Positions 156 to 41,071 of a stretch of DNA of 48,103 bases are shown one piece after another (the first letter of the stretch is position 1; the number at the start of each line of letters is the position of its first letter). This DNA is from Deltaproteobacteria bacterium (GTDB lineage Bacteria > Myxococcota > SpSt-1050 > JACRCP01). The DNA is taken from contig JACRCP010000396.1 in the NCBI GenBank assembly GCA_016218965.1, positions 1 to 48,103 of the forward strand. Reading direction: 5' to 3'. The notes beneath the pieces are model-generated. The model saw nothing but the letters and a program-made list of their open reading frames with translations, did not search any database and had not been told where the DNA came from. A program made the translations under genes and the position numbers.

Positions 156-824
156 TCAGCAGAAACGGAGTCCCCGCCATCGATCCTGTTCGAACCGAAC
201 TTTTTTGCTCCATAGATGGTGGCCCGATTCATCATGTTTCACGACATAGGCATCGCTGTTGCCGACGCTGACAAACCGTTCGCCGCCGAAATCGACGGTA
301 TCGTCGAACGACCCGGTCAAAAAGACGTTGCCCCGAGGGTCACTGGAAACCGAATTTCCCCATGCAGACCCGGTCGATTGAAAATGTTTGCTCCACAAGT
401 GGCCACCATTCGCGTCGAATTTGGCGAGACAGATGCCCGGTGCGACACCGGCTACGATCAGGTCCCCACCTCCGAAGTCCATTGTCCCCTGGCAGGCCGC
501 GGTCAGAAATACACTCCCGGAGGTGTCAGCCGAAACGGAGATGCCTTCATCCCAATCGAATGATCCAAAAGACCTGCTCCAAAGATGGTCGCCGGCTGCG
601 TTGTATTTCGCGAGGAAGGCATCAGAGCTTCCCGCACTGGCGAGTTCCCCCCCGCCGAAGTCCACTGTTGCCTGAAAAAAACCCGTTACGAACAGCGGCC
701 CCGGGGCACTGGGGGTCAGACACTGGCAGTTGGCACATAGATCCCAAGTCTCACGACCTGGGCCAACACTGTGCTGCCCGCGGCGGGCTTCCGGGGGCGA
801 AATTCCTTGACGAAAGCGGACCAT
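156..824 (-). CDS. SBBP (beta-propeller) repeat protein, probably truncated or a remnant. It has no signal peptide.
   Basis: Three tandem ~60-aa repeats of the pattern D..G.hLWSK.FGS...G.SVS.D..GNVFLTG...DFGGG, typical of the SBBP beta-propeller repeat. The first Met at 824 has no secretion signal, and an in-frame stop lies at 903-905 upstream. The ORF overlaps the upstream region of the EF-G-like gene. Confidence 0.4.
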   Translation of the reverse strand: MVRFRQGISPPEARRGQHSVGPGRETWDLCANCQCLTPSAPGPLFVTGFFQATVDFGGGELASAGSSDAFLAKYNAAGDHLWSRSFGSFDWDEGISVSADTSGSVFLTAACQGTMDFGGGDLIVAGVAPGICLAKFDANGGHLWSKHFQSTGSAWGNSVSSDPRGNVFLTGSFDDTVDFGGERFVSVGNSDAYVVKHDESGHHLWSKKVRFEQDRWRGLRFC

Positions 825-883
825 CTGGCATACAAACTGCCCTCCACCCGGCCCCCCGGGGACCGACCAAAGGAGCTCTTTCC

Positions 884-2971
884 ATGGCAGGCAGGGACCC
901 CATCAGGAACATATCGGTGATCGGCTACGACGGCGCCGGCAAGACCGCGTTCACAGAGGCGCTGGCGCGCCTGGGCGCCCCCGATCGCGCGAGCAAGGAC
1001 GGCTCGACTTCGCGGCTGGACCATGAACCGGAGGAAGGCAAGCGCAACTTCTCGGTCACCACCCACGTCACCCACCTCCAGTGGAAAGGCCTCACGATCA
1101 ACGTGCTGGACACGCCCGGCTTCTCGAACTTCCTGACCGAGACCGCCAACATGGCGTCCATGACCGAGGCCGCGGTGATGGTCTGTTCGGCGACCGGCGC
1201 CGCCAAACACCTGACCGAACGTTTCTGGTTCATCGCCGAGGACGCAAAGCTGCCGGTCGCGTTTTACGTGAACCGCATGGACACCGAAAGCGCCAGTCTC
1301 GCGAACGCGGTCAAGGGGATCGAGGCCGAGATCCAGGCGCGGGTGGTGGTGTGCCAGCTCCCCGTCGGCACCGACTCGCTGCACCGCGGTGTCGTGGACC
1401 TTTTCACCGGCAAGGCGTGGATCATCGAGGGCGCGTTCGGGAAGATGGGTGAGAAGGACGTCCCGGCCGACATGAAGGACGAGGTCGCGACCTACCGGAC
1501 CCAGCTCATCGAGTCGATCGCCGAATGCGACGACGAGCTGCTCAACAAGTACCTCGAGGGCACCGAGCCGACGCCCGCGGAACTCGAGGCCGCCTTCGCC
1601 AAGGGGTTCGCCGCCCGCAAGATCTTCCCGCTTTTCTGCGGATCGGCCAAGAAGGGCACGGGGTTGGGCCTCCTCCTTGACTGCGTCGCGCAGTCGTTCC
1701 CCGCCCCCAATGAGCGGGCCGAGTGGGTCGGATCGGATCCAAAGGGCGGCCAGGCCATCATGCGCAAGCCGCTCGCCTCGGAGCCGTTCTCGGCGCTGGT
1801 GTTCAAGACGACCATTGACCGCTTCACCGGCAACGTCTCGTTTCTACGCGTGGTTTCCGGGACGCTCACTACCGACATGGCGGTCTACAACCCCGCGAAG
1901 AGGGTCGAAGAGAAGTTTGCCGGCCTCGCGAAGCTCGACGGGAAAAACCTCGTCCCCGTCAAACAGGCCGCCGCCGGAGACGTCGTCGCCCTGACCAAGC
2001 TCAAGGAAACCCAAACGGGAAACACCCTCTGCGATTCCGCCAGCCCCGTGCTGCTCTCACCGTTCGGCGCGCCGAAACGCGTCATGTCGGTCGCCATCAA
2101 GCCAAGAAACAAGGCCGACGAGGACAAGATGGCGCAGGGGATCCTCAAGCTGGTCGAGGAGGACCCCGTCCTCGAGTACTCGCGGGACCCCGTCACCAAG
2201 GAGGCAATCCTTGCGGCCATGGGGCAGGCGCACATAGAGGTGACCATCGAGAGGCTGCGCCGCAAGTTCGAGGTCGAGGTGTCCTCGTCGCCGCCCAAGA
2301 TCGCGTACCGCGAGACGGTCAAGGGCAAATCCGAGGCCCAGGGAAAGTACAAGAAACAGACCGGCGGGCGCGGGCAGTACGGCGACTGCTGGCTCAAGAT
2401 GGAGCCGCTCGCGCGGGGCACCGGGTTCGAGTTTGCCGACGAGATCTTCGGCGGCTCCATCCCCAAGAACTTCATCCCGGCTGTCCAGAAGGGCGTCGAG
2501 GGAGCGATGCTCGAAGGCCCGGTGGCCGGGTATCCGGTGGTCGACGTCAAGGTGACGGTCTACGACGGCTCGTACCACGACGTGGACTCGTCGGAACTCG
2601 CGTTCAAGATGGCCGGCTCGTTCGGCTTCCAGAACTGCATCGCCGAGGCGAATCCCATCCTCCTCGAGCCGATCATGAAGATCGAGGTGACCATTCCCGA
2701 GGAATACATGGGCGACGTCATCGGCGACCTCAACTCCCGCCGCGGGAAGATCCTCGGCATGGAATCGACGCGGCGCGGAAGCACCATCAGGGCGCTAGTC
2801 CCGCAGGCCGAGATCCTCACGTACTCGCCCGAACTCCACTCCCGAACGCAGGGGCTCGGTTACTACACCATGGAGTTCTCGCACTACGAGGAGACCCCGC
2901 CGCTCGTGGCGGCGAAAGTGAAGGAACAGACCGCCAAGGCCAGGGCTGCAGAGGAAGCGGCGAAGAAGTAG
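884..2971 (+). CDS. Translational GTPase of the EF-G family (EF-G paralog or EF-G-like protein)
   Basis: ATG at 884 with AGGAG 8 nt upstream. G1 P-loop GYDGAGKT, then DTPGF and NRMD G-motifs, and EF-G domain II-V-like sequence through the C-terminus. The long ORF 362..2971 has 174 non-homologous N-terminal codons, so the internal start was chosen. Confidence 0.85.
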   Translation: MAGRDPIRNISVIGYDGAGKTAFTEALARLGAPDRASKDGSTSRLDHEPEEGKRNFSVTTHVTHLQWKGLTINVLDTPGFSNFLTETANMASMTEAAVMVCSATGAAKHLTERFWFIAEDAKLPVAFYVNRMDTESASLANAVKGIEAEIQARVVVCQLPVGTDSLHRGVVDLFTGKAWIIEGAFGKMGEKDVPADMKDEVATYRTQLIESIAECDDELLNKYLEGTEPTPAELEAAFAKGFAARKIFPLFCGSAKKGTGLGLLLDCVAQSFPAPNERAEWVGSDPKGGQAIMRKPLASEPFSALVFKTTIDRFTGNVSFLRVVSGTLTTDMAVYNPAKRVEEKFAGLAKLDGKNLVPVKQAAAGDVVALTKLKETQTGNTLCDSASPVLLSPFGAPKRVMSVAIKPRNKADEDKMAQGILKLVEEDPVLEYSRDPVTKEAILAAMGQAHIEVTIERLRRKFEVEVSSSPPKIAYRETVKGKSEAQGKYKKQTGGRGQYGDCWLKMEPLARGTGFEFADEIFGGSIPKNFIPAVQKGVEGAMLEGPVAGYPVVDVKVTVYDGSYHDVDSSELAFKMAGSFGFQNCIAEANPILLEPIMKIEVTIPEEYMGDVIGDLNSRRGKILGMESTRRGSTIRALVPQAEILTYSPELHSRTQGLGYYTMEFSHYEETPPLVAAKVKEQTAKARAAEEAAKK

Positions 2972-2980
2972 GCACTGCCC

Positions 2981-4375
2981 GTGCAGGACAAGTTCCACGA
3001 TCACTGCGGGGTCTTCGGGATCTTCGGCCACGCCGAGGCCGCGAATCTGACCTACCTTGGACTGCACGCCCTCCAACACCGGGGACAGGAATCGGCGGGG
3101 ATCGTCTCTTCTGACCGCGACCGCCTGTACTCGCACAAGGCGATGGGGCTGGTGAGCGACATCTTCGACGCGCCCCTGCTGGCAACACTCAAGGGCGATA
3201 TCGCCATCGGTCACGTCCGGTACTCGACGACCGGGGGTTCCCACGTCAGGAACGCCCAGCCGTTCGCCGTCGACTTCTCGCTCGGCTCGATCGCCCTGGC
3301 CCACAACGGAAACCTCGTCAACGCCATGGACCTGCGCTACTCGCTCGAACAGCGCGGCTCGATTTTCCAGTCGAGTATGGACACCGAGGTGGTCGTGCAC
3401 CTGATCGCCACCTCGCGCCTGCCGTCGCTGGTGGACCGAATCCGGGAGGCGCTGGGCCTGCTGAAAGGGTCCTACTCGATGCTCTTCCTGACTGAAAAGA
3501 GCATCATCGCGGCCCGCGACCCGCTTGGCATCAGGCCGATGTGCCTGGGCCGGATCAAGAACGCCTGGGTGGTGGCATCCGAAACGACCGCGCTCGACCT
3601 CATCGAGGGCGAGTACGTCCGCGACGTCCAGCCGGGCGAGATGGTCATCCTGGACGAAAAAGGCATGCAGTCGGTCCGTTTCGCTGATCCGGTGCCGCAC
3701 AGGCACTGCATCTTCGAGTTCATCTACTTCGCCCGCCCCGACTCATTCATCTTCGGGCAGGAAGTGTACGGCGTGCGCAAGGCGCTGGGGCACGAGCTCG
3801 CCCGCGAGCACTGCGTCGAGGCCGACATGGTCATGTCGGTCCCCGACTCGGGCACGGTCGCCGCGCTGGGATTCGCCGAGGGGCGCCGGATCCCGTTCGA
3901 AATGGGCCTCATCCGGAGCCACTACGTCGGCCGCACGTTCATCGAGCCGCAGCAGCACATCAGGCATTTCGGGGTAAAACTCAAGTTGAATCCCGTCCGC
4001 AAATTCATCGACGGCAAACGCGTCGTCGTGGTCGACGACTCGATAGTACGGGGGACGACCTCGCGGAAACTCGTGAAGATGGTCCGCGCCGCGGGCGCGC
4101 GCGAGGTTCACGTGATCATCTCGAGCCCGCCCACGGTCTGCCCGTGCTTCTACGGCATCGACACCCCGACCCGGCAGGAGCTCATCGCGTCGAGCCACTC
4201 CATAGACGAGGTCCGGAAGTACATCACCGCCGATTCACTGGGCTATCTCTCGGTCGAAGGGCTCCACCGCGCCGTCGGCAGCAACGGCAACGGTTTCTGC
4301 GACGCCTGCTTCACCGGCAACTACCCCATCAAGTTCGACGACCACCCCTACCCCCGCCAGATGCATTTGTTCTGA
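2981..4375 (+). CDS. purF: Amidophosphoribosyltransferase (glutamine PRPP amidotransferase)
   Basis: N-terminal propeptide followed by CGVFGI (Ntn-hydrolase catalytic Cys) and a PRTase domain with DDSIVRGTT. The C-terminal Cys cluster (CPCFYGID...CDAC) suggests a 4Fe-4S-type PurF. GTG start at 2981. Confidence 0.9.
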
Positions 4376-4385
4376 ACTTTGGAGT

Positions 4386-4475
4386 GCGGCAGCTTGCTAC
4401 CGCTTTGAATTGAAGCGAGCTTGCTCGCGACACGCGGCAGCAAGCTGCCGCACAAAAGCGCAAGCAAGCTTGCGC
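4386..4475. repeat. Array of four tandem 14-18 bp perfect or near-perfect palindromes, with core GC(G/R)NAGC-WW-GCTNCGC, immediately 3' of purF
   Basis: GCGGCAGCTTGCTACCGC at 4386-4403, GCGAGCTTGCTCGC at 4415-4428, GCGGCAGCAAGCTGCCGC at 4434-4451, GCGCAAGCAAGCTTGCGC at 4458-4475. The last two recur almost identically at 40977-41021. Confidence 0.6.
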
Positions 4476-4579
4476 ACTCCAAACGCGGCGTCGCACTTGC
4501 GGGAGCGCCCGGAGTTGTATAGACTGCCCGCAGCCCGAAGGTCGAGCGACCGAAACTGCGGTTTCAAGGAGGCGCGGGG

Positions 4580-5113
4580 ATGGTGATCTTTTTGACGATC
4601 TGCGCGGTGGGGTTCACGATCCTGCTGGTGTCGCTCCTGCTCGGCGAGATCGCGGACCACGGCGGGGAGCTGCTGCACGACATCGGCGGCGACCATGACG
4701 CCCTCGAGACCTCCGGCCCGAGCTTTTTCAGCCTGAGGATGATGGCAAGCTTCGTCACCGGGTTCGGCGGCGCGGGGGCCATCGGGCGCCACCTCGATCT
4801 GTCGTACTTCGCGAGCTCGGCCGTCGGCCTCGGCGGCGGCATGGCGATCGCCGGGCTCGTGTACGTCGTCGTGAGCTTCGTCTACAAGCAACAGGCATCC
4901 AGCACCGTCGTGGTCTCCCAGCTGGTCGGGAAGATCGCCAAGGTTTCTATCACGATCCCCGCCGGGGGCGTCGGGCAGGTAACGCTGCCCGCCAAAGGCT
5001 CGACGATGACCGTAATGGCAAGGGCTCAGGACGGCGCGGAGATCGAGTATGGCTCCGTCGTCGTGGTGAAGGAAGTGGTGGGGGACCAGATCACAGTTGC
5101 AAGACAACCTTAG
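4580..5113 (+). CDS. NfeD-like membrane protein, the partner of an SPFH/flotillin protein
   Basis: ATG at 4580 with AAGGAGG RBS. N-terminal TM helices and a C-terminal OB-fold-like segment (KVSITIPAGGVGQVTL...VVVVKEVVGDQITV), directly upstream of a flotillin gene. Confidence 0.75.
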   Translation: MVIFLTICAVGFTILLVSLLLGEIADHGGELLHDIGGDHDALETSGPSFFSLRMMASFVTGFGGAGAIGRHLDLSYFASSAVGLGGGMAIAGLVYVVVSFVYKQQASSTVVVSQLVGKIAKVSITIPAGGVGQVTLPAKGSTMTVMARAQDGAEIEYGSVVVVKEVVGDQITVARQP

Positions 5114-5126
5114 GGAGGACAGCACA

Positions 5127-6917
5127 ATGCAGGCACGGATGCGGATTTTCGTGGTTTTCGGAACATTCCTGACCGTCGCGTTCGCCGCCTCAGAGGCGGC
5201 GGCGGAGTCGGCGGTCGAGGCGTTTAACCTGTCGGCCCTGTTCATACCGGTCATCGTCCTCGTCTGTGTTCTGGCGACGATCATCGCAATCGCGATATTC
5301 CTCCGGAACTACGTCAAGGTCCCGCCCAACCAGGTCGCGGTAATCTCGGGACGAAAGCGCTCGCTCGCCGACGGCTCGGCGGTCGGATTCCGGCTCGTGA
5401 GCGGCGGCGCGACGTTCCGCTGGCCGTTTCTCGAGATCGCCCACTACATGAACCTCGAGGTCATCAGCATCCCGGTCTCGACCAAGAACGTCATTACCAA
5501 GGAGGGCGTGCCGCTCAACGTCGATGCCATCGCCAACGTGAAGATCGGCGGCGACGAGAGTTCGATGGGCAACGCCGCCGAGCGGTTCCTCGGGATGCAG
5601 GCCGACGAGATGCGGCACATCGTCGAGAACACGCTCGAAGGACACCTCCGGGCGATCTGCTGCACGCTCACCATCGAGCAGATCAACTCGGACCGGCAGA
5701 AGTTCGCCCAGCAGATGATCACCGAGGCGGCCGACGACCTGCGGCGCATGGGGATTGTCATTGACGCGCTCGTCGTCCAGCATATCCAGGACGAGCAGGG
5801 ATACCTCGAATCTCTCGGCAAGAAGCGCACCGCCGAGGTCAAGCGCGACGCCGAGATCGGCCAGGCCGAGGCCGGCCGTGACGCGGCGATCCGCACCGCC
5901 GAGGCCCAGCGCGACGCCACCAAGAAGGGGACCGACGCCCAGCGCGAGGGCGCGGTGACAAGGAACAAGAACCTCGAGGAGATCGCCCAGGCGGAAAGGA
6001 ACCTCAAGGTCAAGCAGGCCCAACTCCAGTCCGAGATCGCGGCGGAAGAGGCGGTCAGGGACCAGGCCGGCCCCAAGTCGAAGGCCGAATCCGAGAAGGC
6101 GGTGCTTGTCGCCCAGGTCGACGCGCAGAAGGCCAAGATCGAGGCCGAGATCACGCTCCAGCAGAAGCTCGCCGAACGCACCCAGCAGGAACTTCAAGCC
6201 ACCGTTATCCGCCAGGCCGAGGCCGGGCGGCAGAAGGCGCTCATCGACGCCGAGGCGTACCAGACTGCCACGGTCGTCAGGGCCCAGGGCGACCGCGATG
6301 CGGCCATCACCAAGGCCGAGGCGGGCAAAGAGGTCGCCGTGCGTGAGGGTCAGGGCGAGGCGTCCAAGATCAAACAGATTGGCGAGGCCGAGGCGGCCAG
6401 GACCCGGGCGGTCATGCTGGCCCAGGCCGAGGGTGAATCGGCCCAGATCAGGCAGAAAGGCGAGGCCGAGGGCGCCGCGATCCGCGCGAAACTCCTGGCC
6501 GAGGCCGAGGGGACGCTCAAGAAGGCCGAGGCGATGCGCCAGATGGAGGAGGCCGCCAAGCTCATGTTCATCCTCGACCGCCTGCCCACGGTGATTGATT
6601 CGGCGGGCGAGGCGGCCGCCAAGGCCCTGACGCCGGCATTCCAGGCGGTCGGCAGCGGGATGGCGAGCATCGACAAGGTCACTATCATCGAGACGGGAGA
6701 CGGAAGCGGCCAGGGCGGCGTGGCCAGGTTCGCGAGCACGGCGCCGACGGTATTCTTCCAGGTCCTCCAGCAGGCCCGGGCGTTGGGCCTCGACCCGACG
6801 ACTCTGTTCGACAAGCTCGGCGTGAAGGTCGTCGAAAATCTCGGCGTCGAACAGGCTGTGAAGTCGGCGATTCCAACGGTCAGGGAAACAGCCGCTCCGC
6901 CGGCCAAAAAGGCCTGA
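5127..6917 (+). CDS. Flotillin-like SPFH/band-7 domain protein
   Basis: ATG at 5127 with AGGGAGG RBS. A TM hairpin, then an SPFH domain and a long Ala/Glu/Gln-rich coiled-coil (EA repeats) typical of bacterial flotillins (YqiK/FloT-like). Confidence 0.85.
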   Translation: MQARMRIFVVFGTFLTVAFAASEAAAESAVEAFNLSALFIPVIVLVCVLATIIAIAIFLRNYVKVPPNQVAVISGRKRSLADGSAVGFRLVSGGATFRWPFLEIAHYMNLEVISIPVSTKNVITKEGVPLNVDAIANVKIGGDESSMGNAAERFLGMQADEMRHIVENTLEGHLRAICCTLTIEQINSDRQKFAQQMITEAADDLRRMGIVIDALVVQHIQDEQGYLESLGKKRTAEVKRDAEIGQAEAGRDAAIRTAEAQRDATKKGTDAQREGAVTRNKNLEEIAQAERNLKVKQAQLQSEIAAEEAVRDQAGPKSKAESEKAVLVAQVDAQKAKIEAEITLQQKLAERTQQELQATVIRQAEAGRQKALIDAEAYQTATVVRAQGDRDAAITKAEAGKEVAVREGQGEASKIKQIGEAEAARTRAVMLAQAEGESAQIRQKGEAEGAAIRAKLLAEAEGTLKKAEAMRQMEEAAKLMFILDRLPTVIDSAGEAAAKALTPAFQAVGSGMASIDKVTIIETGDGSGQGGVARFASTAPTVFFQVLQQARALGLDPTTLFDKLGVKVVENLGVEQAVKSAIPTVRETAAPPAKKA

Positions 6918-7379: not shown

Positions 7380-8717
7380 ATGAGAACCGCAGCGTTGTTC
7401 GTAGTGGCGTTGCTGCTGGCCTCCTGCGCGGGCGAGTCCGAGACCTCCACGGACGCCGGCTCGCGCGATTCCGGCGGAGCCGCCGAAGGGGACTCGGGAG
7501 GCGCGCCGGGGGCCTGCGCGCGTGACGACGACTGCCTCGCGTTCGAGACGTGCGTTGATGGACGTTGCGTGATTCCGGACGTGCCGGACGCGGGGACGCC
7601 TGATTCGTCCGACATGTCAGACACGTCGGACCAGTCCGACACGGGCGTGACGCCCGACACCAACGACGCCGGTTCGCTGGACGGTCCTGATCTGTCCGAT
7701 GTGTCCGACATGTCCGACGTGTCAGACCTGTCCGATGCCGCCGACGCGGGGTTTGACGCCGGCGGCACTGACGGCGGCACCGACGCCGGCCAGGGCACCT
7801 GCCCGGTCGGCGTGACGTGCGTCGATTCATTCCCGTTCGGCGACGACCGCGACACCTCGGCCGAGCCGCCTGGCACGTTCTCGTCGTACTCATGCAAGCC
7901 GACAGTCAACGAGGGCGGGCCGGAGGTGATCTACCGCGTCACCGTTCCGGAGGCGGGGTTCCTTTCGGCGGCCGTGTACGAGGAGAGCGGCGTGGACGTG
8001 GACGTCCACATCCTCTCGGAACTGAACCAGTCTAAGTGCATCGACCGCGGGAATTTCCACGCCCGCGCGGACGTCGAGGCGGGAGTCCACTGGGTCGTGA
8101 TAGACACGTACGTCAGCGGCGGAACTCCCCAGGCCGGGAAGTTCCATGTGGACATCGGCTTCTACGTCCCGTCACGCGGTTCGTGCGCCATGGAGACGGG
8201 CGAGATGCCTCGCGTGGGTGACGGCGGCAATCATCTTCAAATGCCGGCCACCGGGCCGATGGTCCTCGAGGCGCACCTTGTCACGCAGGAAGAGTCTTAT
8301 CGGCCCGCTTCCTCGACACAGCACCTGACCGAGCACTACGCCCTCTCGCAGACGGAGACGGGTTTCGTGATGTATCGCGAGGAGGTCTGGGCGCCGCTCG
8401 AGGGCGGGAGTTTTTACGGCGCGGGGATCGGTGATCCGTCCCTGTTCCCCGTTCTGCACGAGGGTTGGTACGTCAACATGTACTGGACCGCGGCCGCCCG
8501 CCCGTCCCGCGGGACGAGAATGATCCTCAAGGACCCGGATTCGTCCCATGCGGTCGTCGTGGCGGCCGGATACGAGACCGGCCCCGGTGATCTCTCGAAC
8601 ATCGGCGGGACGCCCGAAGAGACTCATTTCTTTTTGCGCACCGGCCACGAGAGCACCCTGACGCTCGGCATCGCGGCCGACCAGACCCTGCCTTACGGCC
8701 CGCGCGTGTGCGAGTAG
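7380..8717 (+). CDS. Lipoprotein with an N-terminal CxxDDDC motif and a (D-x-S-D)n low-complexity linker, unknown function
   Basis: Signal peptide with lipobox LLASC, then GACARDDDCLAFETCVDGRC, then SDMSDTSDQSD...LSDVSDMSDVSDLSD linker, then a ~300-aa globular domain. Confidence 0.65.
   Translation: MRTAALFVVALLLASCAGESETSTDAGSRDSGGAAEGDSGGAPGACARDDDCLAFETCVDGRCVIPDVPDAGTPDSSDMSDTSDQSDTGVTPDTNDAGSLDGPDLSDVSDMSDVSDLSDAADAGFDAGGTDGGTDAGQGTCPVGVTCVDSFPFGDDRDTSAEPPGTFSSYSCKPTVNEGGPEVIYRVTVPEAGFLSAAVYEESGVDVDVHILSELNQSKCIDRGNFHARADVEAGVHWVVIDTYVSGGTPQAGKFHVDIGFYVPSRGSCAMETGEMPRVGDGGNHLQMPATGPMVLEAHLVTQEESYRPASSTQHLTEHYALSQTETGFVMYREEVWAPLEGGSFYGAGIGDPSLFPVLHEGWYVNMYWTAAARPSRGTRMILKDPDSSHAVVVAAGYETGPGDLSNIGGTPEETHFFLRTGHESTLTLGIAADQTLPYGPRVCE
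7607..7740. repeat. Strand-symmetric TCCGAC/GTCGGA-rich tract encoding (D-x-S-D)n
   Basis: Imperfect hexanucleotide repeats gtccgacatgtcagacacgtcggaccagtccgacac and ctgtccgatgtgtccgacatgtccgacgtgtcagacctgtccgat. They read as SD repeats on both strands. Confidence 0.6.
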
Positions 8718-8739: not shown

Positions 8740-10632
8740 ATGAAGAACTTCACCATTGGGGAGCGCCTGCGGTACGCCTTTGACAATACCATGTCCAAGG
8801 GGACCATCGCGCTCATTGGCTGGCTGGCGGTCCTTTCGGTCGTAGTCATCGCCTTCATCTCGGCCATCGTGTGGGCGGTCGGCATCGCCCCGGAGGGAAA
8901 GGGCGATTTCGCGAAGCTCCTGTGGATGAGCCTCATGCGCACGCTCGACGCCGGCACGATGGGCGGCGACGAAGGCGATTGGGCGTTCCTGTTTGCGATG
9001 CTCGGCGTCACCATCGCGGGGATCTTCATCATCTCGACGCTCATCGGCGTGCTCACCACCGGCATCGAGGCCCGGCTCGGGGCGCTCCGAAAGGGCCGCA
9101 GCAAGGTGGTCGAGCAGAACCACACGGTCATTCTCGGATGGTCCGAGGCGGTCTTCACGATCGTCTCCGAGCTCACCGTCGCCAACGAGAACCAGAAGAA
9201 CCCCTGCGTGGCGATCCTCGCCGACAAGGACAAGGTCGAGATGGAGGACACCATCCGCGACAAGGTCGGCGACACCAAAAACACGCGTGTCGTCTGCCGC
9301 ACCGGCAGCCCGATCGATCTCAACGACCTCGACATCATCGGCATCCACTCATCGAAGTCGATCGTCGTCCTCGCCCCCGACGTGGCGGACCCGGACCCCG
9401 AGGTGGTCAAAGTGGTCCTCGCAATCACAAACCACCCCTTCCGCCGGCAGGAGCCGTACCACATCGTGGCCGAGCTGCACGACCCCAGAAACGTCGAAGT
9501 CGCGAAGATGGTCGGAAAGGACGAGGTCGAGGTCGTCCTCGTCTCGGACCTGGTCGCGAGGGTTATCGCCCAGACGTGCCGGCAGTCGGGACTGTCGGTC
9601 GTGTACCAGGAGCTCCTGGACTTCGGCGGTGACGAGATCTACTTCTTCGACGATCCCGCGCTCGTCGGAAAAAAGTTCGGCGACACGCTCAACCTCTTCC
9701 CGGAATCCACGGTCATGGGCTGGCACCCGCACGACGGCGCCCCGGCGCTCAATCCGCCAATGGATACCGTCCTGCGCGCCGGTGATCGGCTCGTGGTGAT
9801 TGCGGAGGACGACGACACGACGAAGATCGGCGCGGCCGCTCCCCGGGTGGACACCGCCGCCTTCTCGGACGCTCCCGTCCCGCCGCCCGCCCCCGAAAAG
9901 ACGATCATCCTCGGGTGGAACTGGCGCGCGCCGATCCTAATCAACCAGCTCGACGCCTACGTCGCCCCCGGCTCCCTGGTGACGGTGGTATCCACCAACC
10001 CCGACGCGACCGCGCAGTTCAAGAAGCTCTGCACCGACCTCAAGAACCTCAAGGCGGAAATCCGCGAGGGCGACCCCGCCGACCGCCGCCTGCTCGACTC
10101 GCTTAACATCCCCGGCTATCACCACGTCATCCTGCTCTCGAACTCCGACACGATGACCCCCGAGGCGGCCGACGCGCACACGCTCTTCACGCTCCTTCAC
10201 CTCCGCGACATCGCCGACAAGTTCGGAAAGTCGTTCTCGATCGTGAGCGAGATGCTCGACGTGAAGAACCGCGAGCTCGCAGAGGTGACGCGGGTGGACG
10301 ACTTCATCGTGAGCGACCGTCTGGTGAGCCTGATGCTCACACAAGTCTCCGAGAACAAACACTTGAACGCGGTCTTTGCCGACGTCTTCGACCCGGAGGG
10401 ATCCGAGATCTACCTCAAGCCCGTCGAGCGCTACGTGAAGACGGGCGTCCCGGTGAACTTCGCGACCGTGGTCGAATCCGGCAGGCAGAAGAGCGAGCTT
10501 GCCATCGGCTGGTCAATCAAGGTCCACGCCCATGACGCGTCAAAGGCCTACGGCGTGCGGACCAACCCCAAAAAGGACGAGACCGTCACCTTCGCCCAGG
10601 GCGACAAGGTCATCGCCGTCGCCGAGTCGTAG
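8740..10632 (+). CDS. CASTOR/POLLUX (DMI1)-like ion channel with tandem RCK/TrkA-like domains
   Basis: ATG at 8740 with GAGGAG RBS. Two TM segments flank a pore-like region (MRTLDAGTMGGDEGDW), followed by two RCK-like domains (HTVILGW..., KTIILGWNW...). Confidence 0.8.
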   Translation: MKNFTIGERLRYAFDNTMSKGTIALIGWLAVLSVVVIAFISAIVWAVGIAPEGKGDFAKLLWMSLMRTLDAGTMGGDEGDWAFLFAMLGVTIAGIFIISTLIGVLTTGIEARLGALRKGRSKVVEQNHTVILGWSEAVFTIVSELTVANENQKNPCVAILADKDKVEMEDTIRDKVGDTKNTRVVCRTGSPIDLNDLDIIGIHSSKSIVVLAPDVADPDPEVVKVVLAITNHPFRRQEPYHIVAELHDPRNVEVAKMVGKDEVEVVLVSDLVARVIAQTCRQSGLSVVYQELLDFGGDEIYFFDDPALVGKKFGDTLNLFPESTVMGWHPHDGAPALNPPMDTVLRAGDRLVVIAEDDDTTKIGAAAPRVDTAAFSDAPVPPPAPEKTIILGWNWRAPILINQLDAYVAPGSLVTVVSTNPDATAQFKKLCTDLKNLKAEIREGDPADRRLLDSLNIPGYHHVILLSNSDTMTPEAADAHTLFTLLHLRDIADKFGKSFSIVSEMLDVKNRELAEVTRVDDFIVSDRLVSLMLTQVSENKHLNAVFADVFDPEGSEIYLKPVERYVKTGVPVNFATVVESGRQKSELAIGWSIKVHAHDASKAYGVRTNPKKDETVTFAQGDKVIAVAES

Positions 10633-10642
10633 GCAGGCCGCA

Positions 10643-11641
10643 TCATTCGAAAACGGCCGCCATGATGGCGACGAGATGCGCGACGTCCTGGACGCGGCGG
10701 AACGACCCGGCGTTGACGTGCGACAAGGCCGGAGTGACCAGGAGCCGGTGACGCCCCGACCCGGCACTCCCGCGCAGTTCGGCGGATATCCTCTTCGAGT
10801 GGACCGGAGGGATGAGAGGGTCGTTTGCGTCGTGCAGAAGCAGGACCCGGCATCCGGGTCCGAACGTCCTGCCCGCCGGCGAAAGCTCGCGGAGCGTCTC
10901 GCGCGACAGGGTCTTCTCGTACAGGCGACGGAGATCGGCCGCGTTGAGCGCGCGTTCGCAGAAGGCGCGCCGCGGCGCGAGATCCCGGTCCTCGCACCAC
11001 GTGCGCAACAGACGCGCCACCTCGTCCCCATCCGCGCGGGAGATTCCGGCCCGCGTTCCGAGCGCGTGCGCCATCAGAAATCTCAGATACAGATGGTTGT
11101 CCCACTCCTCGTCCGTCCGCGGCGCTCCGGAATAGCGGTTCCAGACCCATTGAAGCGCCTCGTAAAGGGAGTGGTACGCACCGAACGATATCACGGTGTC
11201 AATCGTGCCCCGCCCCGCGTCGTCCGCCGCTGCGGTGAGCGAGATACCGGCCCCGAAGCTGAACGCGACGATCCCGGCCGGCCGGCCGTCCAGCCGCGCC
11301 AGATGCCCCGACAAGTCGGTGATCGCCGAAAGATCGCCGCGCTCGAACCGCCCGTTCTTGAGGCCCGGAAGCTCGACTGCGGCCGCACGCACACCCCGGC
11401 GCGCCAGCGCCCGCGAAAACCCCACGAGCCGCCGGTCCATTTCGCCCGCGAGCGTCATCCCGTGAACCGTGATCCACGTCCGCGCCGCGCGCGCCGGTTC
11501 ATACAGACAGTACGACGTACCGCCCGGGGTCCGGGGGCGTCGCTCCAAAACGCCAGGACCGTCGCCCACCGCCATCGGGTCTACGACCTCAAGGAGGAAA
11601 CGCGCGGACTTCGCCAGCGACAAGACCCGCCGCGCCTTCAC
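10643..11641 (-). CDS. Alpha/beta-hydrolase fold protein
   Basis: Nucleophile-elbow-like AFSFGAG and an HG-type motif (VHGMTLAG). Its start codon overlaps the stop of the upstream rhodanese gene by 4 nt. Confidence 0.7.
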   Translation of the reverse strand: MKARRVLSLAKSARFLLEVVDPMAVGDGPGVLERRPRTPGGTSYCLYEPARAARTWITVHGMTLAGEMDRRLVGFSRALARRGVRAAAVELPGLKNGRFERGDLSAITDLSGHLARLDGRPAGIVAFSFGAGISLTAAADDAGRGTIDTVISFGAYHSLYEALQWVWNRYSGAPRTDEEWDNHLYLRFLMAHALGTRAGISRADGDEVARLLRTWCEDRDLAPRRAFCERALNAADLRRLYEKTLSRETLRELSPAGRTFGPGCRVLLLHDANDPLIPPVHSKRISAELRGSAGSGRHRLLVTPALSHVNAGSFRRVQDVAHLVAIMAAVFE

Positions 11642-12078
11642 GGTGCCCCCCTGTCAACCGGTCCGCGCCACGCCTCGATCCCGCCGGCCAGGTTCCTGAC
11701 CTTCCCGAAGCCCCGGCTCATAAGCCTTTTGGCCGCCACTTTGCTCCGGTGCCCTTTTTGACAGTACGTCACGACGTCGGCGTCGGCACTCAGCGCGGCT
11801 GCGCTTCCGGGAAGCCCGCCAAGCGGCATCAGGACGGCGCCCGGGATGCGCCCGCGCGCGAATTCGGCCGGCTCCCGGACGTCCACGATCACCACGCCCT
11901 TCCAGTCCCGAAGAAGCGACTCGAGATCGGCGGCACTGATTTCCTTGACGCCAAAAAACCTCGCCGCGTCAAATGCAAACGCCACGGCAGCGGCCGCACC
12001 GGCAACAACGACGACCGTGGCGACGACACGCACCGGACCGCCGGGTCGCGAATCAGGTTTGTCTTCCGCGGGGTTCAT
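11638..12078 (-). CDS. Membrane-anchored single-domain rhodanese (sulfurtransferase)
   Basis: N-terminal TM helix, then a rhodanese fold with active-site loop CQKGHRS and DVREPAEF. ATG at 12078. Confidence 0.75.
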   Translation of the reverse strand: MNPAEDKPDSRPGGPVRVVATVVVVAGAAAAVAFAFDAARFFGVKEISAADLESLLRDWKGVVIVDVREPAEFARGRIPGAVLMPLGGLPGSAAALSADADVVTYCQKGHRSKVAAKRLMSRGFGKVRNLAGGIEAWRGPVDRGAP

Positions 12079-12132
12079 ACCTATAATTCGGATACTAAAC
12101 CGGCAGAGGTGCCCGTGGCAACCGAACTCAGC

Positions 12133-12951
12133 ATGCTCGAACAGATCGTCGCGTTCGCCTCGGGTTTCGTGATCAAACCCGCCTACATGATCGCGATGCT
12201 CGTGTTCGTGCTGATCGTCGGGCGAAACAGCGAGCCGGACGTCCGGCAACTCGGCGCCGGAACGGCGGTTTTCCTGCTCGGGGAGGTCTTCTGCGCGGCC
12301 GACTACCTTTTTGCCGGCGGAAAAAACGTTGCACTGGAGTGGCTTCACGGCCTTGGCATGATCGCCGGCTCCGGGATTTTGTTTCTCGGCTTCATCAACA
12401 CGGCGGACCGAAGAGTGCTTTTCTTCTCGGCGCCCGGCCGCGCCTGCGCGTTGACGCGTTTCTGCGGCACCTGCGCCAAAAACACCCGGACGCCGTGCCG
12501 TTTCGAGCATCTGTTCATGTTCTTCTCGCTGTCGCTCGCGGTCGTCTCGTGCATGCCTTTCGCCTCGCCGTTCATCCAGATCGACAGGACCGTCAAGGTC
12601 TTCGGCACCGACGTCTGCCAGAACCACCCCGTTTTCCTGCAACTCTTCGAGATGCGCATCTATCCGGCGACCGCCGTGGTGCTTTTCTGTGCGTCATTTC
12701 TCGCCCTGCTCTGGATCAGGAACTCGCCGGTGGGCGTTGCGAAGTACCCTTTCGCCTTCGGCCTCGGGTTCTTTTCGTACGGTACGTTCAAGTATTTCCT
12801 GCTTGCCGCGTACCGCGAGGCCGTCGTGCGGGCCGACTTCTGGGAGGAGGTCACCGAGCTCCTCCTGACCGCCGGACTGATCATCTTCGTCGCACTTTTC
12901 CGCAAGCGCCTTTTGTTGAAAGGCTCTCACGAAACCGGGGAGGCGGCATGA
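12133..12951 (+). CDS. Polytopic integral membrane protein with conserved Cys pairs, translationally coupled to a radical SAM gene
   Basis: At least seven hydrophobic segments, plus CGTCAKNTRTPC and CQNHP motifs. The stop overlaps the rSAM start (ATGA at 12948-12951). Alternative in-frame GTG starts at 12109 and 12115, and a TATAAT lies at 12082-12087. Confidence 0.6.
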   Translation: MLEQIVAFASGFVIKPAYMIAMLVFVLIVGRNSEPDVRQLGAGTAVFLLGEVFCAADYLFAGGKNVALEWLHGLGMIAGSGILFLGFINTADRRVLFFSAPGRACALTRFCGTCAKNTRTPCRFEHLFMFFSLSLAVVSCMPFASPFIQIDRTVKVFGTDVCQNHPVFLQLFEMRIYPATAVVLFCASFLALLWIRNSPVGVAKYPFAFGLGFFSYGTFKYFLLAAYREAVVRADFWEEVTELLLTAGLIIFVALFRKRLLLKGSHETGEAA

Positions 12952-19706: not shown

Positions 19707-20141
19707 ATGCCCAACAACGAAAACAGGCCACCGGACTGGAAAACTTTCCTCACCACATGGAAGAACCTTTCAATCATTTTCGCATGGATACTGGGGGCGA
19801 TATTGGTCATCGGGATAATACTGATCGCACTGGATTATCTCCGTATCATCGGCCCGGCTGGACACGGTGTCCTGATTCCAGCCGCACTGTTCGTGTGGGT
19901 GTTTCTGTTCTGGGTTTTTCTGACGTTGGTGATGGTGACTTTGGTATTGTTGAGAAAAGGGCCGGCACGGAGCGAGTACCGCAACCGTTGTCTCGAGACC
20001 GATGGCCCCCGCTCGCGCAAACCTTGGGCCAAGGTCCTTACGTTGGTGGAGACGCCGAACGGAGTGCAAACGCGCACGGACAAGCAGGGCTTGTCCGTGG
20101 CACCCTCGGATTGGAACGGGCGGGTTCCGCACCCGCGATGA
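19707..20141 (+). CDS. Hypothetical membrane protein (3 TM helices)
   Basis: Internal ATG at 19707. Strongly hydrophobic core FAWILGAILVIGIILIALDYL...FVWVFLFWVFLTLVMVTLVLL. Confidence 0.45.
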   Translation: MPNNENRPPDWKTFLTTWKNLSIIFAWILGAILVIGIILIALDYLRIIGPAGHGVLIPAALFVWVFLFWVFLTLVMVTLVLLRKGPARSEYRNRCLETDGPRSRKPWAKVLTLVETPNGVQTRTDKQGLSVAPSDWNGRVPHPR

Positions 20142-25747: not shown

Positions 25748-27067
25748 ATGAAAGCCACCGCATTTGTCGGCGTGACGTTCTGCCTTGCGGCCCTTGCCTG
25801 CGGCGAGGGCGTGACTGAAAACAGAGCGGACGCGCCGGCGGGTCGCGACGCGGGCGGCGGGCGGGACGAGGAGACGAGGGACGAAGGGACGACGGACGCG
25901 GGCGCGCAGGACGCGTCGGAACCGTCCGACCGGTCCGACACGTCCGACAGGTCTGACCTGTCCGATGTGGGTGGGTTTGACGCGTCCGATGCGTCCGATC
26001 TGTCCGATCGGTCCGATCCGTCCGACGTTGCAACACCGCAGGACGCCGGCACCGACGCGGGGCCGCCGCTTCACTATCCCGGGAAGACATGGGACGAAAA
26101 GGACCCCGGCGAGGCAGGGCTGGACAGCGCCAGGCTCGACTCGTACAAGGGCTCCGTTCTCGGCAGGGGCTGCGTGACGCGGGGCGGGTACATGGTGTAC
26201 ACGTGGGGCGATCAGGCCGCCAGGGGCGACGTCGCGTCCGCCTGCAAGCCTTTCTTCAGCCACTTCCTGTTCACGGCGGTCGAGGAGGGGCTGCTGGAGA
26301 ACATTGACGTACCGGCGAGGCAGTTCGAGCCGAGGCTCGACGCTATCAACAAGGACCTGGGCTACAAGGACCGCGGGATACTCTTCCGCCACTTTGCCAC
26401 GCAGACATCGTGCTACGGCGTCACCGAGTCCCCCGGAACCGCCTTCGACTACAACGACTTCCAGATGGCCCTGTTTTTCGACACGCTGTTTCTCAAGGTG
26501 TACGGAAAAACCTACGACAACCTGGACGCCGACGTGTTCAGGGCACGCCTGTGCGACGTCATCGAGTGCGAGGACAGTCCCACCTTCTTTGCCTTCGGGA
26601 AGAACGACCGCCCCGGGAGAACCGCGATCTCGGTCCGTGACTTCGCGCGCTTCGGCCTGCTGTACATGCGCGGGGGGCGATGGAACGACCGTGAACTGAT
26701 CCCGGCCGACGTCGTGCTCGCCGCAACGACCAGCCCTCTGCCGAACGCGATCCCGAGGACAAACGGCGTCGAAGCCGAGATGATCGCCGGACAAAGGTCC
26801 CTGGGCTCGAACACGATCCCCGACAACCAGACCGACCACTACGGGAGCTACAGCTACCTGTGGTGGACAAACGGCGTGGATCGGGACGGGAACCGGCAGT
26901 GGCCCGACGCGCCGCTCGACACCTACGGCGCTTTCGGACACGGCGGGAAGCGTGCGATGGTGGTGATTCCCAGCCTGGATATCGTGACGAGTTGGAACGA
27001 CTCCGGCATCGACACGCCGGAGAAGGCAAATGAGGCGCTGAAAAGGCTCGTCGCGTCGGTGCAATGA
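25748..27067 (+). CDS. Lipoprotein, beta-lactamase/transpeptidase-fold serine hydrolase (class C / family VIII esterase-like)
   Basis: MKATAFVGVTFCLAALAC lipobox, an SD-repeat linker, and a catalytic domain with the S-x-x-K motif (ASACKPF) and a later Tyr/HGG region. Confidence 0.75.
   Translation: MKATAFVGVTFCLAALACGEGVTENRADAPAGRDAGGGRDEETRDEGTTDAGAQDASEPSDRSDTSDRSDLSDVGGFDASDASDLSDRSDPSDVATPQDAGTDAGPPLHYPGKTWDEKDPGEAGLDSARLDSYKGSVLGRGCVTRGGYMVYTWGDQAARGDVASACKPFFSHFLFTAVEEGLLENIDVPARQFEPRLDAINKDLGYKDRGILFRHFATQTSCYGVTESPGTAFDYNDFQMALFFDTLFLKVYGKTYDNLDADVFRARLCDVIECEDSPTFFAFGKNDRPGRTAISVRDFARFGLLYMRGGRWNDRELIPADVVLAATTSPLPNAIPRTNGVEAEMIAGQRSLGSNTIPDNQTDHYGSYSYLWWTNGVDRDGNRQWPDAPLDTYGAFGHGGKRAMVVIPSLDIVTSWNDSGIDTPEKANEALKRLVASVQ
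25915..26030. repeat. SD-repeat tract (D-x-S-D)n
   Basis: ccgtccgaccggtccgacacgtccgacaggtctgacctgtccgatgtg...gcgtccgatgcgtccgatctgtccgatcggtccgatccgtccgac, about 90% identical to 30283-30396. Confidence 0.6.
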
Positions 27068-30111: not shown

Positions 30112-31875
30112 ATGAAAGCCACCGCATGTGTCGGCGTGATGTCGTGCCTTGCGGCCCTTGCCTGCGGCGGGGGCGTGACGGAAAACGGAGCGGACGTGCC
30201 GGTCGGGCGCGACGCGGGCGGCGGAGGGGACGAAGGGCCGACGGACGCCGGGACGATGGACGCGGGCGCAGAGGACGCGTCCGAGCCGTCCGACCGGTCC
30301 GACATGTCCGACAGGTCAAACATGTCCGATGCGGGCGGGTTTGACGCGTCCGATGCGTCCGATCCGTCCGATCGGTCCGATCCGTCCGATGTTGCCACGC
30401 CGCAGGACTCCGGCGCCGACGCGGGCGGTGGAGGGGACGAGGGGACGACGGACGCGGGTACAGACACGGGCGTGCAAGCCGACAGCGGGGCCGATACGGG
30501 GGTTGCAGATACGGGGGTTCCGGACGCCGGCAACGGTTGTGTCCCGGTGGACGTCCCCCCGAAGGTCGAAGATTCGACGCTCCCCGGCGAGAATCCGCCG
30601 GGGAAATCCGAGGCGCGCCTTCAGGGCTCGTTCCACGACGAGTACCTCTACGACTCGACGAACTACATCAAGATCGGCGTGCGGCGCGAGTGGGGCGGCT
30701 CGGTGATCTTCTTCGGCCTCGTCTCGGGCGGAGCGGGGATGAATGGAACCAACACCATAGACGCCAACGACACCGGCCGCGAGGTGCAGGTGGCGTTCTA
30801 CGACCCCGACCGGGCGATGCAGAACTGCGCGTGGAACGCCTCGTGCCGGACCGTCCCGACATCGTGCGCGCAGTCGATCACTTTCTTGGGCTGGGACCCG
30901 GTTCAGGGCGGGAACCGCTGCAACAACGGCTCGGGAGTCGACTCGGTGGCGAACGCAAACGGACTCCTGTCAGTCGTCACCACGCCGCTTTTCTGGAACC
31001 CCGACTGGGACCGCCAGGACTGCAACTCGGGCGGCTGCAGCGACCCGCAGAAGAAGTACCGCAAATCCGACGTGCAGGTGACGCAGCGGTTGAGGTTCGT
31101 CCGGACGCACGTTGTCGAGATCGACTACACCATTTCCAACCTCGCCGACTTCGACCACGCCGAGACCGCTCAGGAGATGCCCACGCTTTACTCGGCCAAC
31201 GGCGAAAACGGCCCCGACCTCTGGAAACTCGTGGACTCGAACGGCACGGAGGTCCCGATAGATCAGCCCGCGGGCGGCGACGGCTTCAACTACAAGAACC
31301 TCACCAGCCCAGGCGGCTGGGTGACCATGCAGAACACGGCCGAAGACTACGGAGTGGGGATCTACTACGAGAACCGTCTGTCGTCGTTCCAGGGCTGGCA
31401 GCTCCGCTCGCTCCCGTTCAACAACGTGCGCGCGATCTTCCCGTTCGCCATTCCCCCGCACGCATCGGTTCGCGCAAGGGCGTATCTCATCGTCGGCGGC
31501 TACGGCACGGTTTCGGCCGAGGCGGCCTGGCTCGACGCACACCTCGCGCCGTTCGGCTCGCTCGACGTCCCCTCGGCCGATGCGACGGTTTCGGGAGCGG
31601 TGGAGATCTCGGGCTGGGCGCTCGACAACAAGGACGTCACGTCAGTTGAACTGCTGGTAGACGGAAAACCGGCGGGCGCAATGACGTATGGCTCTGCACG
31701 CCCGGACGTCTGCAAGGTCTGGCCGCAGTACAGAAAATGCCCAAACGTGGGATACGGCGGGACGCTCGACACATCTTCGCTTTCGGCGTGCCAGCACCTC
31801 GTCGAGGCTGTCGCAGAAGATGCCGACGGGAACTCGCGCGTGATAGACCGGAAGAGATTCAGCGTTTCGAGGTGA
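30112..31875 (+). CDS. Lipoprotein of unknown function with an SD-repeat linker and a C-terminal Ig-like domain
   Basis: MKATACVGVMSCLAALAC lipobox. The N-terminal ~110 aa are a near-duplicate of the 25748 gene, and the rest is unrelated. Confidence 0.7.
   Translation: MKATACVGVMSCLAALACGGGVTENGADVPVGRDAGGGGDEGPTDAGTMDAGAEDASEPSDRSDMSDRSNMSDAGGFDASDASDPSDRSDPSDVATPQDSGADAGGGGDEGTTDAGTDTGVQADSGADTGVADTGVPDAGNGCVPVDVPPKVEDSTLPGENPPGKSEARLQGSFHDEYLYDSTNYIKIGVRREWGGSVIFFGLVSGGAGMNGTNTIDANDTGREVQVAFYDPDRAMQNCAWNASCRTVPTSCAQSITFLGWDPVQGGNRCNNGSGVDSVANANGLLSVVTTPLFWNPDWDRQDCNSGGCSDPQKKYRKSDVQVTQRLRFVRTHVVEIDYTISNLADFDHAETAQEMPTLYSANGENGPDLWKLVDSNGTEVPIDQPAGGDGFNYKNLTSPGGWVTMQNTAEDYGVGIYYENRLSSFQGWQLRSLPFNNVRAIFPFAIPPHASVRARAYLIVGGYGTVSAEAAWLDAHLAPFGSLDVPSADATVSGAVEISGWALDNKDVTSVELLVDGKPAGAMTYGSARPDVCKVWPQYRKCPNVGYGGTLDTSSLSACQHLVEAVAEDADGNSRVIDRKRFSVSR
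30283..30396. repeat. SD-repeat tract (D-x-S-D)n, paralogous to 25915-26030
   Basis: Direct comparison of the two tracts in sequence. Confidence 0.6.
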
Positions 31876-39607: not shown

Positions 39608-39666
39608 TCCCGAGTCTTGAGCCCGTGCCCCGGTTGACCGCCGCGCCGCGCCGTCCGGGGTGCCAC

Positions 39667-41021: not shown

Positions 41022-41071
41022 ACCCCACCCGACCGGCGTATAATGTGCCTGCACCGGGCAAGGAGGGAAAC

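Follow-up and report, generated by a model that had tools for sequence, protein, structure and literature searches.

What are the palindromes that follow purF in a contig of Deltaproteobacteria bacterium, and why does part of the array recur 36 kb away? The window, the whole stretch of 48,103 nt that we analysed (contig JACRCP010000396.1, positions 1–48,103), had been described in an original prediction from its letters alone as carrying four tandem palindromes after purF, two of which return as a shared core at a second site. A dispersed element was proposed there, resembling either repetitive extragenic palindromes (REPs) or miniature inverted-repeat transposable elements (MITEs), or else a genome-wide operator. 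With a probability of roughly 0.8, we conclude that the palindromes are REP units, that is, extragenic hairpins with a conserved single-stranded 5′ foot, that the array after purF (site A) is an inverted doublet of the REPIN (REP doublet forming hairpins) or BIME (bacterial interspersed mosaic element) type, and that the second copy (site B) is a decayed right half. The observations that carry this conclusion are the hairpin unit itself, its extragenic position, its inverted doublets, a REP-associated tyrosine transposase (RAYT) gene bracketed by REPs in other genomes, the co-variation of REP and RAYT, and a presence/absence polymorphism without target duplication.

All of the palindromes were found in the sequence as described. 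The complete site A composite, which has no strand of its own, covers 106 bp (4378–4483) and comprises four hairpins between the 8-nt inverted repeats TTTGGAGT and ACTCCAAA, a boundary absent from the original prediction. On the plus strand, the left outer REP unit (4380–4403) has the foot TGGAGT (4380–4385) followed by GCGGCAGCTTGCTACCGC (4386–4403), a hairpin of the form GCGGCAG-CTTG-CTACCGC with a single C/A mismatch in the stem; the unit differs by one base from the commonest unit of the family, GGAGTGCGGCAGCTTGCTGCCGC. Beyond the spacer TTTGAATTGAA lies an inner plus-strand hairpin without a foot (4415–4428; GCGAG-CTTG-CTCGC, GCGAGCTTGCTCGC), and the inner hairpin gcgagcttgctcgc, together with its complement, is also seen between outer REPs in many Acidobacteriota loci. 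The spacer GACAC leads to the other inner hairpin, GCGGCAG-CAAG-CTGCCGC (4434–4451), which is the exact 18-mer GCGGCAGCAAGCTGCCGC and has its CTTG loop on the minus strand. After the spacer ACAAAA, the array closes with the right outer REP unit (4458–4481, minus strand), in which GCGCAAG-CAAG-CTTGCGC (GCGCAAGCAAGCTTGCGC, 4458–4475) precedes the foot ACTCCA (4476–4481). Read on the minus strand this unit is TGGAGT-GCGCAAGCTTGCTTGCGC, a variant that is present with an identical foot in loci L003, L006 and L047 and occurs five times in the foot-anchored tally (L-numbers denote the compared genome and metagenome loci, and P-numbers the RAYT homologue proteins).

Apart from one mismatch, the first palindrome of site A is the third in reverse complement. 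Loops of the left half read CTTG and those of the right half CAAG, which makes the array one two-fold symmetric 106-bp unit. As single-stranded DNA, the 106-nt unit folds from either strand into one long hairpin (-41.7 kcal/mol, z = -7.0), single 18-nt hairpins with a 7-bp stem and a 4-nt loop reaching about -8.7 kcal/mol. Folded as RNA, positions 4370–4500 are also stable on both strands (-64.7 kcal/mol, z = -4.7). Taking the chance expectation for the 18-mer from dinucleotide-preserving shuffles of the window, we found six matches with up to three mismatches, on two strands and at three places, where 0.07 were expected and none of 100 shuffles reached six. The second palindrome occurs exactly twice, against an expectation of 0.18.

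Site B (40977–41027, minus strand) consists of GCGGCAGCAAGCTGCCGC (40977–40994), the spacer GAACGCAAA, GCGCAAGCATGCTTGCGC (41004–41021) and the degenerate foot ACCCCA, corresponding to the right half of site A with the left half absent. A core is indeed shared between the two sites, but the predicted length of 45 bp applies only to site B, where the spacer is 9 nt; at site A the spacer is 6 nt and the core 42 bp. The order of inner hairpin, outer hairpin and foot at site B recurs in L047 and at positions 1–110 of L128, and we consider site B best read as a decaying remnant with a mutated foot.

The original prediction would have lost its dispersed-repeat reading had the element been restricted to these two places and conserved nowhere else, and at the family level it is neither. 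Scanning one genome per species, we found the exact 18-mer at no fewer than 119 loci (at least 119). The consensus of the aligned matches listed, aaa-GCGGCAGCAAGCTGCCGC-ACTCCAaag, extends far past the query, with ACTCCA (at most one mismatch) directly 3′ of the hairpin in 120 of the 152 exact 18-mer matches listed. By record label, the footed matches listed fall mainly in the Acidobacteriota (74), followed by Verrucomicrobiota (16), Hydrogenedentota (9), one unclassified metagenome-assembled genome (MAG; 8), Armatimonadota (4) and Chloroflexota (4), and further ones listed are from a Planctomycetota isolate genome, Zixibacteria, Sumerlaeota, one Lysobacterales MAG and another unclassified MAG. 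The 32 footless matches listed (13 from Acidobacteriota, with singles in Proteobacteria, Actinomycetota, Bacillota, Chloroflexota, Saccharibacteria and others) look like chance matches, their number being about what chance predicts.

The form of the unit is equally constrained. Among perfect hairpins in the matched loci, the tetraloops CAAG (118) and CTTG (112) dominate, every other tetraloop occurring at most 11 times, and about 90 of the CAAG/CTTG hairpins have stems unlike that of the query. Anchoring the foot at the 5′ side leaves almost only CTTG or CTCG loops, with CAAG seldom found; the unit is therefore asymmetric, reading 5′-GGAGT, stem, CTTG, stem, TTT-3′, with the family consensus 5′-(TT)TGGAGT-GCGGCAG-CTTG-CTGCCGC-TTT-3′. 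We collected 95 distinct inverted pairs (GGAGT-hairpin ... hairpin-ACTCC), mostly 80–140 bp long with a median of 111 bp, among which site A is typical at 100 bp from foot to foot; two perfect inner hairpins, as in the window, are present in 24 of these doublets, one in 23 and none in 45. Single REP units and ‘double-foot’ single hairpins (TGGAGT-hairpin-ACTCCA) also occur. Counting exact 18-mers only, there are at least six copies on one 1.28-Mb contig (H5_UNCL2) and at least 11 on 10 contigs of a Verrucomicrobia MAG. Across all loci, the longest stop-free stretch spanning each copy does not discriminate extragenic copies, since in GC-rich DNA the reading frames of adjacent genes extend through the stop-free REP. 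Viral contigs gave only two exact matches, with no sign of a phage vehicle.

Several other origins for such a widespread hairpin were considered and dropped. A sequencing-adaptor artefact does not agree with the variation in the stems or with the position of the element in conserved gene contexts. A translation signal combining a Shine-Dalgarno sequence (GGAG in the foot) with a hairpin does not fit site A, which has no downstream start codon on either strand, and a tRNA-like minihelix (stem plus ACUCCA) would lack the NCCA end. In some loci the REP is itself part of a larger repeat: it occupies the centre of a non-coding repeat, about 250 nt long and present in multiple copies, in L014 (4930–5330), L009, L071, L075, L090, L093, L102, L107, L110, L111 and L114, found in the Verrucomicrobia MAG AS27yjCOA_75 and in a second Verrucomicrobiota MAG, with copies 75–91% identical and no match in Rfam. 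Tandem arrays in L081 (1096–1821, period 236 bp) and L089 (6987–7110, 47 bp) have one footed REP per unit.

A protein partner for the hairpins emerges from other genomes. In the Acidobacteriota locus L080, an open reading frame (ORF) of 189 amino acids lies exactly between two inverted copies of the element: its ATG follows directly on ACTCCAAAC, and its 3′ end is immediately adjacent to the TTTGGAGT-hairpin. The predicted protein matches the NCBIfam family NF047646, REP-associated tyrosine transposase (E 1e-18), and gives a weak match to Pfam Y1_Tnp (E 0.002). Homologues, typically of about 183 amino acids and carrying the HUH and Tyr transposase motifs, adjoin the element at two more loci (L043, L098), one of them at 44% identity in a Thermoanaerobaculia MAG and one a fragment in a Hydrogenedentota MAG. 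In L121, L125 and L127 the gene is again bracketed by GGAGT-hairpins, with L127 having full four-hairpin units on both sides in the architecture of site A. The protein collection holds 864 homologues, some of them already named ‘REP-associated tyrosine transposase’ by the Joint Genome Institute (JGI).

As loci chosen for their hairpins would make this association circular, we repeated it from the protein, using 80 metagenome loci found by protein alignment and taking 400 bp as the flank. A GGAGT foot with a perfect hairpin was present within 400 bp of the gene in 54 of 73 upstream and 50 of 72 downstream flanks. GGAGT-hairpins number 2.96 per kb close to the gene but 0.157 per kb at greater distances, a 19-fold enrichment, and the common layout is an [L..R] doublet, the gene, and another [L..R] doublet. 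The REP variant follows the protein subclade. GCGGCAGCTTGCTGCCGC is usual for proteins at least 70% identical to that of L080, also flanking a few more divergent ones, while GCGGTAGCAGCAGCTACCGC and GCGGCGGCTTGACGCCGC are the variants of two protein clades at around 60% identity.

The protein itself has the hallmarks of a RAYT, namely an HUH motif, a catalytic Tyr and a Y1 fold closest to TnpA_REP, as judged from motifs and a moderate-confidence model. Across 16 protein sequences, NH(Y/N)H and YVHxNAVHH are invariant. In the Protein Data Bank (PDB), a sequence search matched nothing but E. coli TnpA_REP (4ER8, E 1.8e-6), in an alignment that brings the HUH and Tyr motifs into register. 4ER8 is also the best fold match of the AlphaFold2 model (E 5.5e-5, template-modelling (TM) scores 0.59/0.64, about 15% identity), which has a moderate predicted local distance difference test (pLDDT) score of 68; next in the fold search come the transposases of IS608 and ISDra2. 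In the genes for P0040, P0054, P0050 and P0037, in-frame REPs separate the HUH motif from the Tyr motif and encode KRQQAAALQ or LECGSSLPLS. In-gene REP insertions are also listed for L155, L162, L169, L178, L190, L204 and L213.

Comparison with relatives of the window indicates that site A is a discrete block. In L128 and L129, whose PurF is 92% identical, the gene order EF-G, purF, NfeD-like, flotillin is the same as in the window, and positions 797–4373 and 4489–5119 of the window align at 85–87% identity. The intervening 115 bp (4374–4488) correspond to 6 bp in these loci, the extra DNA coinciding with the element to within a few bases. No target duplication is visible, AC being on the left and CGCGG on the right. 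Two more distant relatives, L132 (PurF 79%) and L130 (PurF 74%), likewise have no REP after the purF stop, and L128 carries family REPs elsewhere, at 1–110 (GCGGCGTCAAGCCGCCGC-ACTCCAAG). On the simplest reading of these alignments, the whole doublet would have inserted in the window's lineage. The only public contig with the exact NfeD-like protein of the window, L120 (Logan, SRR12113407; 1.1 kb), a contig of the window's own strain, starts inside the last site A hairpin (1–24), and such a break in a short-read contig is expected of a repeat present in many copies in the assembly. Like SRR12113407, the JGI samples 3300040800 and 3300031262 contain the organism or close relatives of it, whereas neither the purF ORF as called nor the Phd protein of the window has a public record.

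Two features of these relatives stand apart from the element. A Y1_Tnp gene in L132 (1930–2385) was set aside, being an IS200-like gene in an AT-rich island with hairpin ends of its own and no match to the profile of the REP-linked protein. L130 has, a few kb from purF, a cluster resembling a type III secretion or flagellar export system (8931–12229; T3SS_needle_F, YscJ_FliF, FliH and the type III secretion system (T3SS) ATPase), which may help to place the lineage.

These results bear out the REP-like element of the original prediction: the family is present in many genomes, flanks a homologue of REP-associated tyrosine transposases, and is missing from site A in a close relative. They have to be weighed against a host origin, in which the hairpins evolved as transcription terminators or stabilisers of mRNA 3′ ends, for purF at site A and for the neighbouring genes at site B. 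The GC-rich 7-bp stems with short T runs, the position of site A directly after a stop codon and the stable RNA fold of this region would all suit such a role, and known REPs can terminate transcription or stabilise mRNA (PMC6006769). A terminator scan flagged GCGCAAGCTTGCTTGCGC-TTTTGT and GCGCAAGCATGCTTGCGC-TTTGCG on the minus strand, a weak signal of one match per site where 0.4 were expected. However, the T runs are only 3–4 long, TTT(T/G), and a terminator would serve no evident purpose at site B, which is flanked by gene starts pointing away from each other. A terminator evolved in place would not share 23 nt and a single-stranded foot with about ten phyla, nor flank a transposase gene, nor be expected to be missing as a block from a 92%-identical relative with the same purF–NfeD layout. 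We therefore regard this origin as unlikely, although such a role may have been acquired secondarily, by exaptation: whichever strand is transcribed, polymerase first meets a hairpin with a GC-rich stem and TTT after it, and the element could stabilise or partly terminate the purF transcript.

The operator for a dimeric regulator, which at site B would include the phd–parE promoter, draws on the perfect dyads of the 18-bp sequences and on the location of site B in a divergent promoter region upstream of a Phd/YefM antitoxin. Antitoxins of the Phd/YefM class autoregulate through palindromic operators. By eye, the TTGCGC half of the outer hairpin of site B is followed at a distance of 17 nt by a TATAAT, but the pair fails the scan threshold and we make no claim for it; the promoter scan passed nothing at either site. 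The pattern of variation is the opposite of that in a duplex half-site, with stems that change by compensatory pairs while the foot and the non-palindromic loop (CTTG, not CAAG, relative to the foot) stay constant, which points to a folded single strand. Site A moreover follows a gene end, and the identical sequence stands beside unrelated genes in about ten phyla, leaving the regulon operator very improbable. A conventional MITE, derived by deletion from an insertion sequence of the DDE type and moved through the termini TTTGGAGT/ACTCCAAA, would account for the terminal inverted repeats, the small size, the intergenic location and the presence/absence polymorphism. Against it stand the filled site A without a target-site duplication, the occurrence of single REP units and double-foot hairpins, and the identity of the only gene repeatedly bracketed by the unit, a Y1 HUH transposase and not a DDE enzyme; we give the MITE as little credence as the operator. 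Hardly credible at all is a small structured RNA or an array like clustered regularly interspaced short palindromic repeats (CRISPR), to which stable folding on both strands and the regularly spaced copies in L048, L081 and L089 might point. The unit is symmetric and had no promoter in the scan, and neither the window nor 17 related loci matched an Rfam family at the gathering score, a relaxed search returning only chance-level microRNA models and Clostridiales-1 at 15–25 bits against cut-offs of 48–85. The original prediction had rejected CRISPR for want of uniform spacers, and rightly so: the four palindromes differ and alternate in orientation, their spacers are 5–11 nt, and neither site in the window shows uniform repeats with unique spacers, though no search aimed at cas genes was made. 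In the L081 and L089 arrays the sequence between REPs is itself repeated, which sets these apart from CRISPR arrays too.

Several points weigh against the identification of the palindromes as REPs and of site A as a REPIN. The canonical GT[AG]G tetranucleotide is absent from the foot, which reads GGAGT, and the window holds two sites only within its 48 kb. The L080 protein falls short of the curated cut-off in NCBIfam (67.6 bits, cut-off 80) as well as in Pfam (18.5 bits, cut-off 23), and its HUH motif is H-N-H. Neither the 48-kb window nor the compared contigs of relatives contain a RAYT gene, so a cognate RAYT in the window's organism is assumed, and the binding and cleavage of the REP by a RAYT of this clade are inferred by analogy. 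Changes on both sides are found at five of seven stem pairs, in a set picked as hairpins, such that the percentage paired follows from the selection and only the diversity of the stems counts. The phylum range leans on taxon labels of MAG contigs, which may be wrong. Finally, the empty site comes from one syntenic relative, in which a precise deletion would be the alternative to an insertion in the window.

Among known systems, the E. coli REP/BIME elements with TnpA_REP (PMC3479197, PMC2817692) share with the present family short extragenic hairpins with a conserved single-stranded 5′ foot, alternating clusters, inverted REPs or BIMEs on both sides of the transposase gene, HUH and Tyr motifs, and a foot ending in AG. 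The E. coli REP differs in having a GTAG foot and a long imperfect stem, where the family described here has a (T)GGAGT foot, a perfect 7-bp GC-rich stem and a 4-nt loop; the Tyr motif of the protein is YVHRNAVHH (about 15% identity to 4ER8) as opposed to YIxxNP in TnpA_REP, and the hosts are mostly Acidobacteriota and other non-proteobacterial phyla. Closer in form are the Pseudomonas REPs and REPINs (GTGGGAGGGGGCTTGCCCCCGAT, GTAGGAGCCAGCTTGCTGGCGAA; PMC2817692, PMC3116915), with short GC-rich stems, a GCTTGC centre, GGAG in the head region and an inverted doublet that is both predominant and the proposed mobile unit. The 89-bp P. fluorescens repeat family cited by Nunvar 2010 (PMC2817692) is comparable to our median doublet. 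However, in Pseudomonas the head begins with GT[AG]G, the REPs go with another protein clade, and near-identical REPs occur within one genus rather than across many phyla.

Subclass 2.4 of TnpA_Y1 (Quentin et al. 2018; Bertels Group 4; PMC6006769, PMC5581495) also has in-gene REPs, double-foot REPs and a range of many phyla. Compared by description only, its signature NH[IFV]H / WQ / YIxNNP and GT[AG]G feet differ from the NHYH / WFQY / YVHRNAV and GGAGT found here. With the ends of IS200/IS605 elements (IS608, ISDra2), the present family has in common a Y1 HUH enzyme acting on single-stranded DNA, a subterminal hairpin with a 5′ guide tetranucleotide, and no target duplication, but it resembles REP systems in that the hairpin units have dispersed unaccompanied by the gene. 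Twice, one and the same RAYT protein recurred in a conserved chromosomal neighbourhood across many samples, unlike a freely multiplying insertion sequence. The acidobacterial ‘TIRYT’ of Di Nocera et al. 2013 (PMC3733652) are likewise Y1 transposases flanked by inverted repeats, some in repeat families. Their proteins (MPDHVH ... WQ ... NPV) are clearly different from the one described here (NHYH ... WFQY ... YVHRNAVHH), and GGAGTGCGG was not found in the supplement text of that paper that was searched.

A mechanism can be proposed by analogy with work on E. coli TnpA_REP and IS200/IS605 (PMC3479197, PMC6006769). In single-stranded DNA, such as that exposed at a replication fork, each REP would fold into a hairpin, and a RAYT encoded elsewhere in the genome would bind this hairpin together with the GGAG(T) foot. 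By cleaving and rejoining single-stranded DNA, the RAYT could then copy or move the whole doublet in trans. A RAYT of the P0007 clade would be predicted to bind or cleave single-stranded 5′-TTTGGAGTGCGGCAGCTTGCTGCCGCTTT-3′ in a foot-dependent manner. In E. coli, the last two bases of GTAG (A3 and G4) specify cleavage at CT (PMC3479197). An AG likewise closes the foot GGAG, and a CT is available in the opposite foot ACTCC; we speculate that each foot might guide cleavage at the other.

REP and REPIN systems as such are known, whereas the present hairpin family appears to be undescribed, having a GGAGT foot in place of GT[AG]G and a wide phylum range; published REP/RAYT surveys concern GT[AG]G or CGTC tags, mostly in Proteobacteria. 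Literature searches for the REP sequence found no match for long strings, and 9–12-mers gave only unrelated primer-type matches. The family, with its GGAGT foot, CTTG loop and transposase clade, is common in Acidobacteriota and present in several poorly studied phyla. For the window, the identification would mean that two odd intergenic structures are selfish or domesticated repeat DNA and not a regulon signal or an RNA gene, and that the purF–NfeD spacer was recently expanded by a 106-bp insertion. Such repeats break metagenome assemblies, and the consensus is a simple pattern with which they can be searched for and masked.

A bolder proposition, which we put forward tentatively and think doubtful, is that across about ten phyla, and in the lineage of the window as well, a single REPIN–RAYT system has retained a 23-nt REP (GGAGT-GCGGCAG-CTTG-CTGCCGC) almost unchanged while its transposases have diverged to 44% identity. 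If so, the REPIN–RAYT pair would have moved repeatedly between phyla, against the view of REPIN populations as strictly vertical and lineage-bound, or else a host-level constraint on the hairpin, as a two-way terminator or a protector of RNA ends, would freeze its sequence. A near-invariant REP across phyla would be a usable test case for vertical versus horizontal inheritance of REPIN–RAYT systems.

Both sites are extragenic, site A lying between the purF stop (4375) and position 4580, and site B between 40907 (minus strand) and the ATG at 41072. The gene assignments of the original prediction hold at both. Upstream of site A, purF (2981–4375, plus strand; best homologue 92% identical and named amidophosphoribosyltransferase) has its stop codon 2 nt before the element. 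Downstream are an NfeD-like gene (4580–5113, plus strand) and, next to it, a Band_7/flotillin gene (5097–6917; Pfam). The NfeD assignment comes from a weak precomputed NfeD_TM match on an identical product, a Pfam scan of the ORF at 4580–5113 having given no family. The nearest named PurF relatives of the window are at most 68% identical and are labelled Thermodesulfobacteriota, Deltaproteobacteria and Polyangiaceae, and the lineage may add a further phylum to the range of the family.

Site B is about 70 bp upstream of the start of the Phd/YefM antitoxin gene (40617–40907, minus strand; PF02604, E 8e-19), which is paired with parE (40298–40630, minus strand; PF05016, E 7e-16). Downstream of the site is a Cys-rich lipoprotein-like gene (41072–41818, plus strand) with a paralogue at 39776–40252, the two being 86% identical at their 5′ ends. 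The ParE/Phd pair (40298–40907, on the opposite strand) and the site B half REP sit between these paralogues, an arrangement that looks like an insertion between tandem paralogues.

The window contains further repeats. A second palindromic repeat of 35 nt, GG(G/A)GTGC-CACGGACAA-N5-TTGTCCGTG, is found at 20071–20105 and 39658–39692 in opposite orientations (86% complementary), both copies adjoining Cys-rich protein genes. Its foot is similar to the REP's GGAGTGC, and the repeat may thus represent a second class of REP; none of the loci compared contained a copy. Repeats with a 9-bp period (TCCGAC-type) occur at 7591–7744, 25890–26043, 30254–30407 and 32807–32993, in several large paralogous genes, and were read by eye, without translation, as Ser-Asp-rich linkers. 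The segments at 25.7–26.0 kb and 30.06–30.36 kb are 86% identical over 300 nt.

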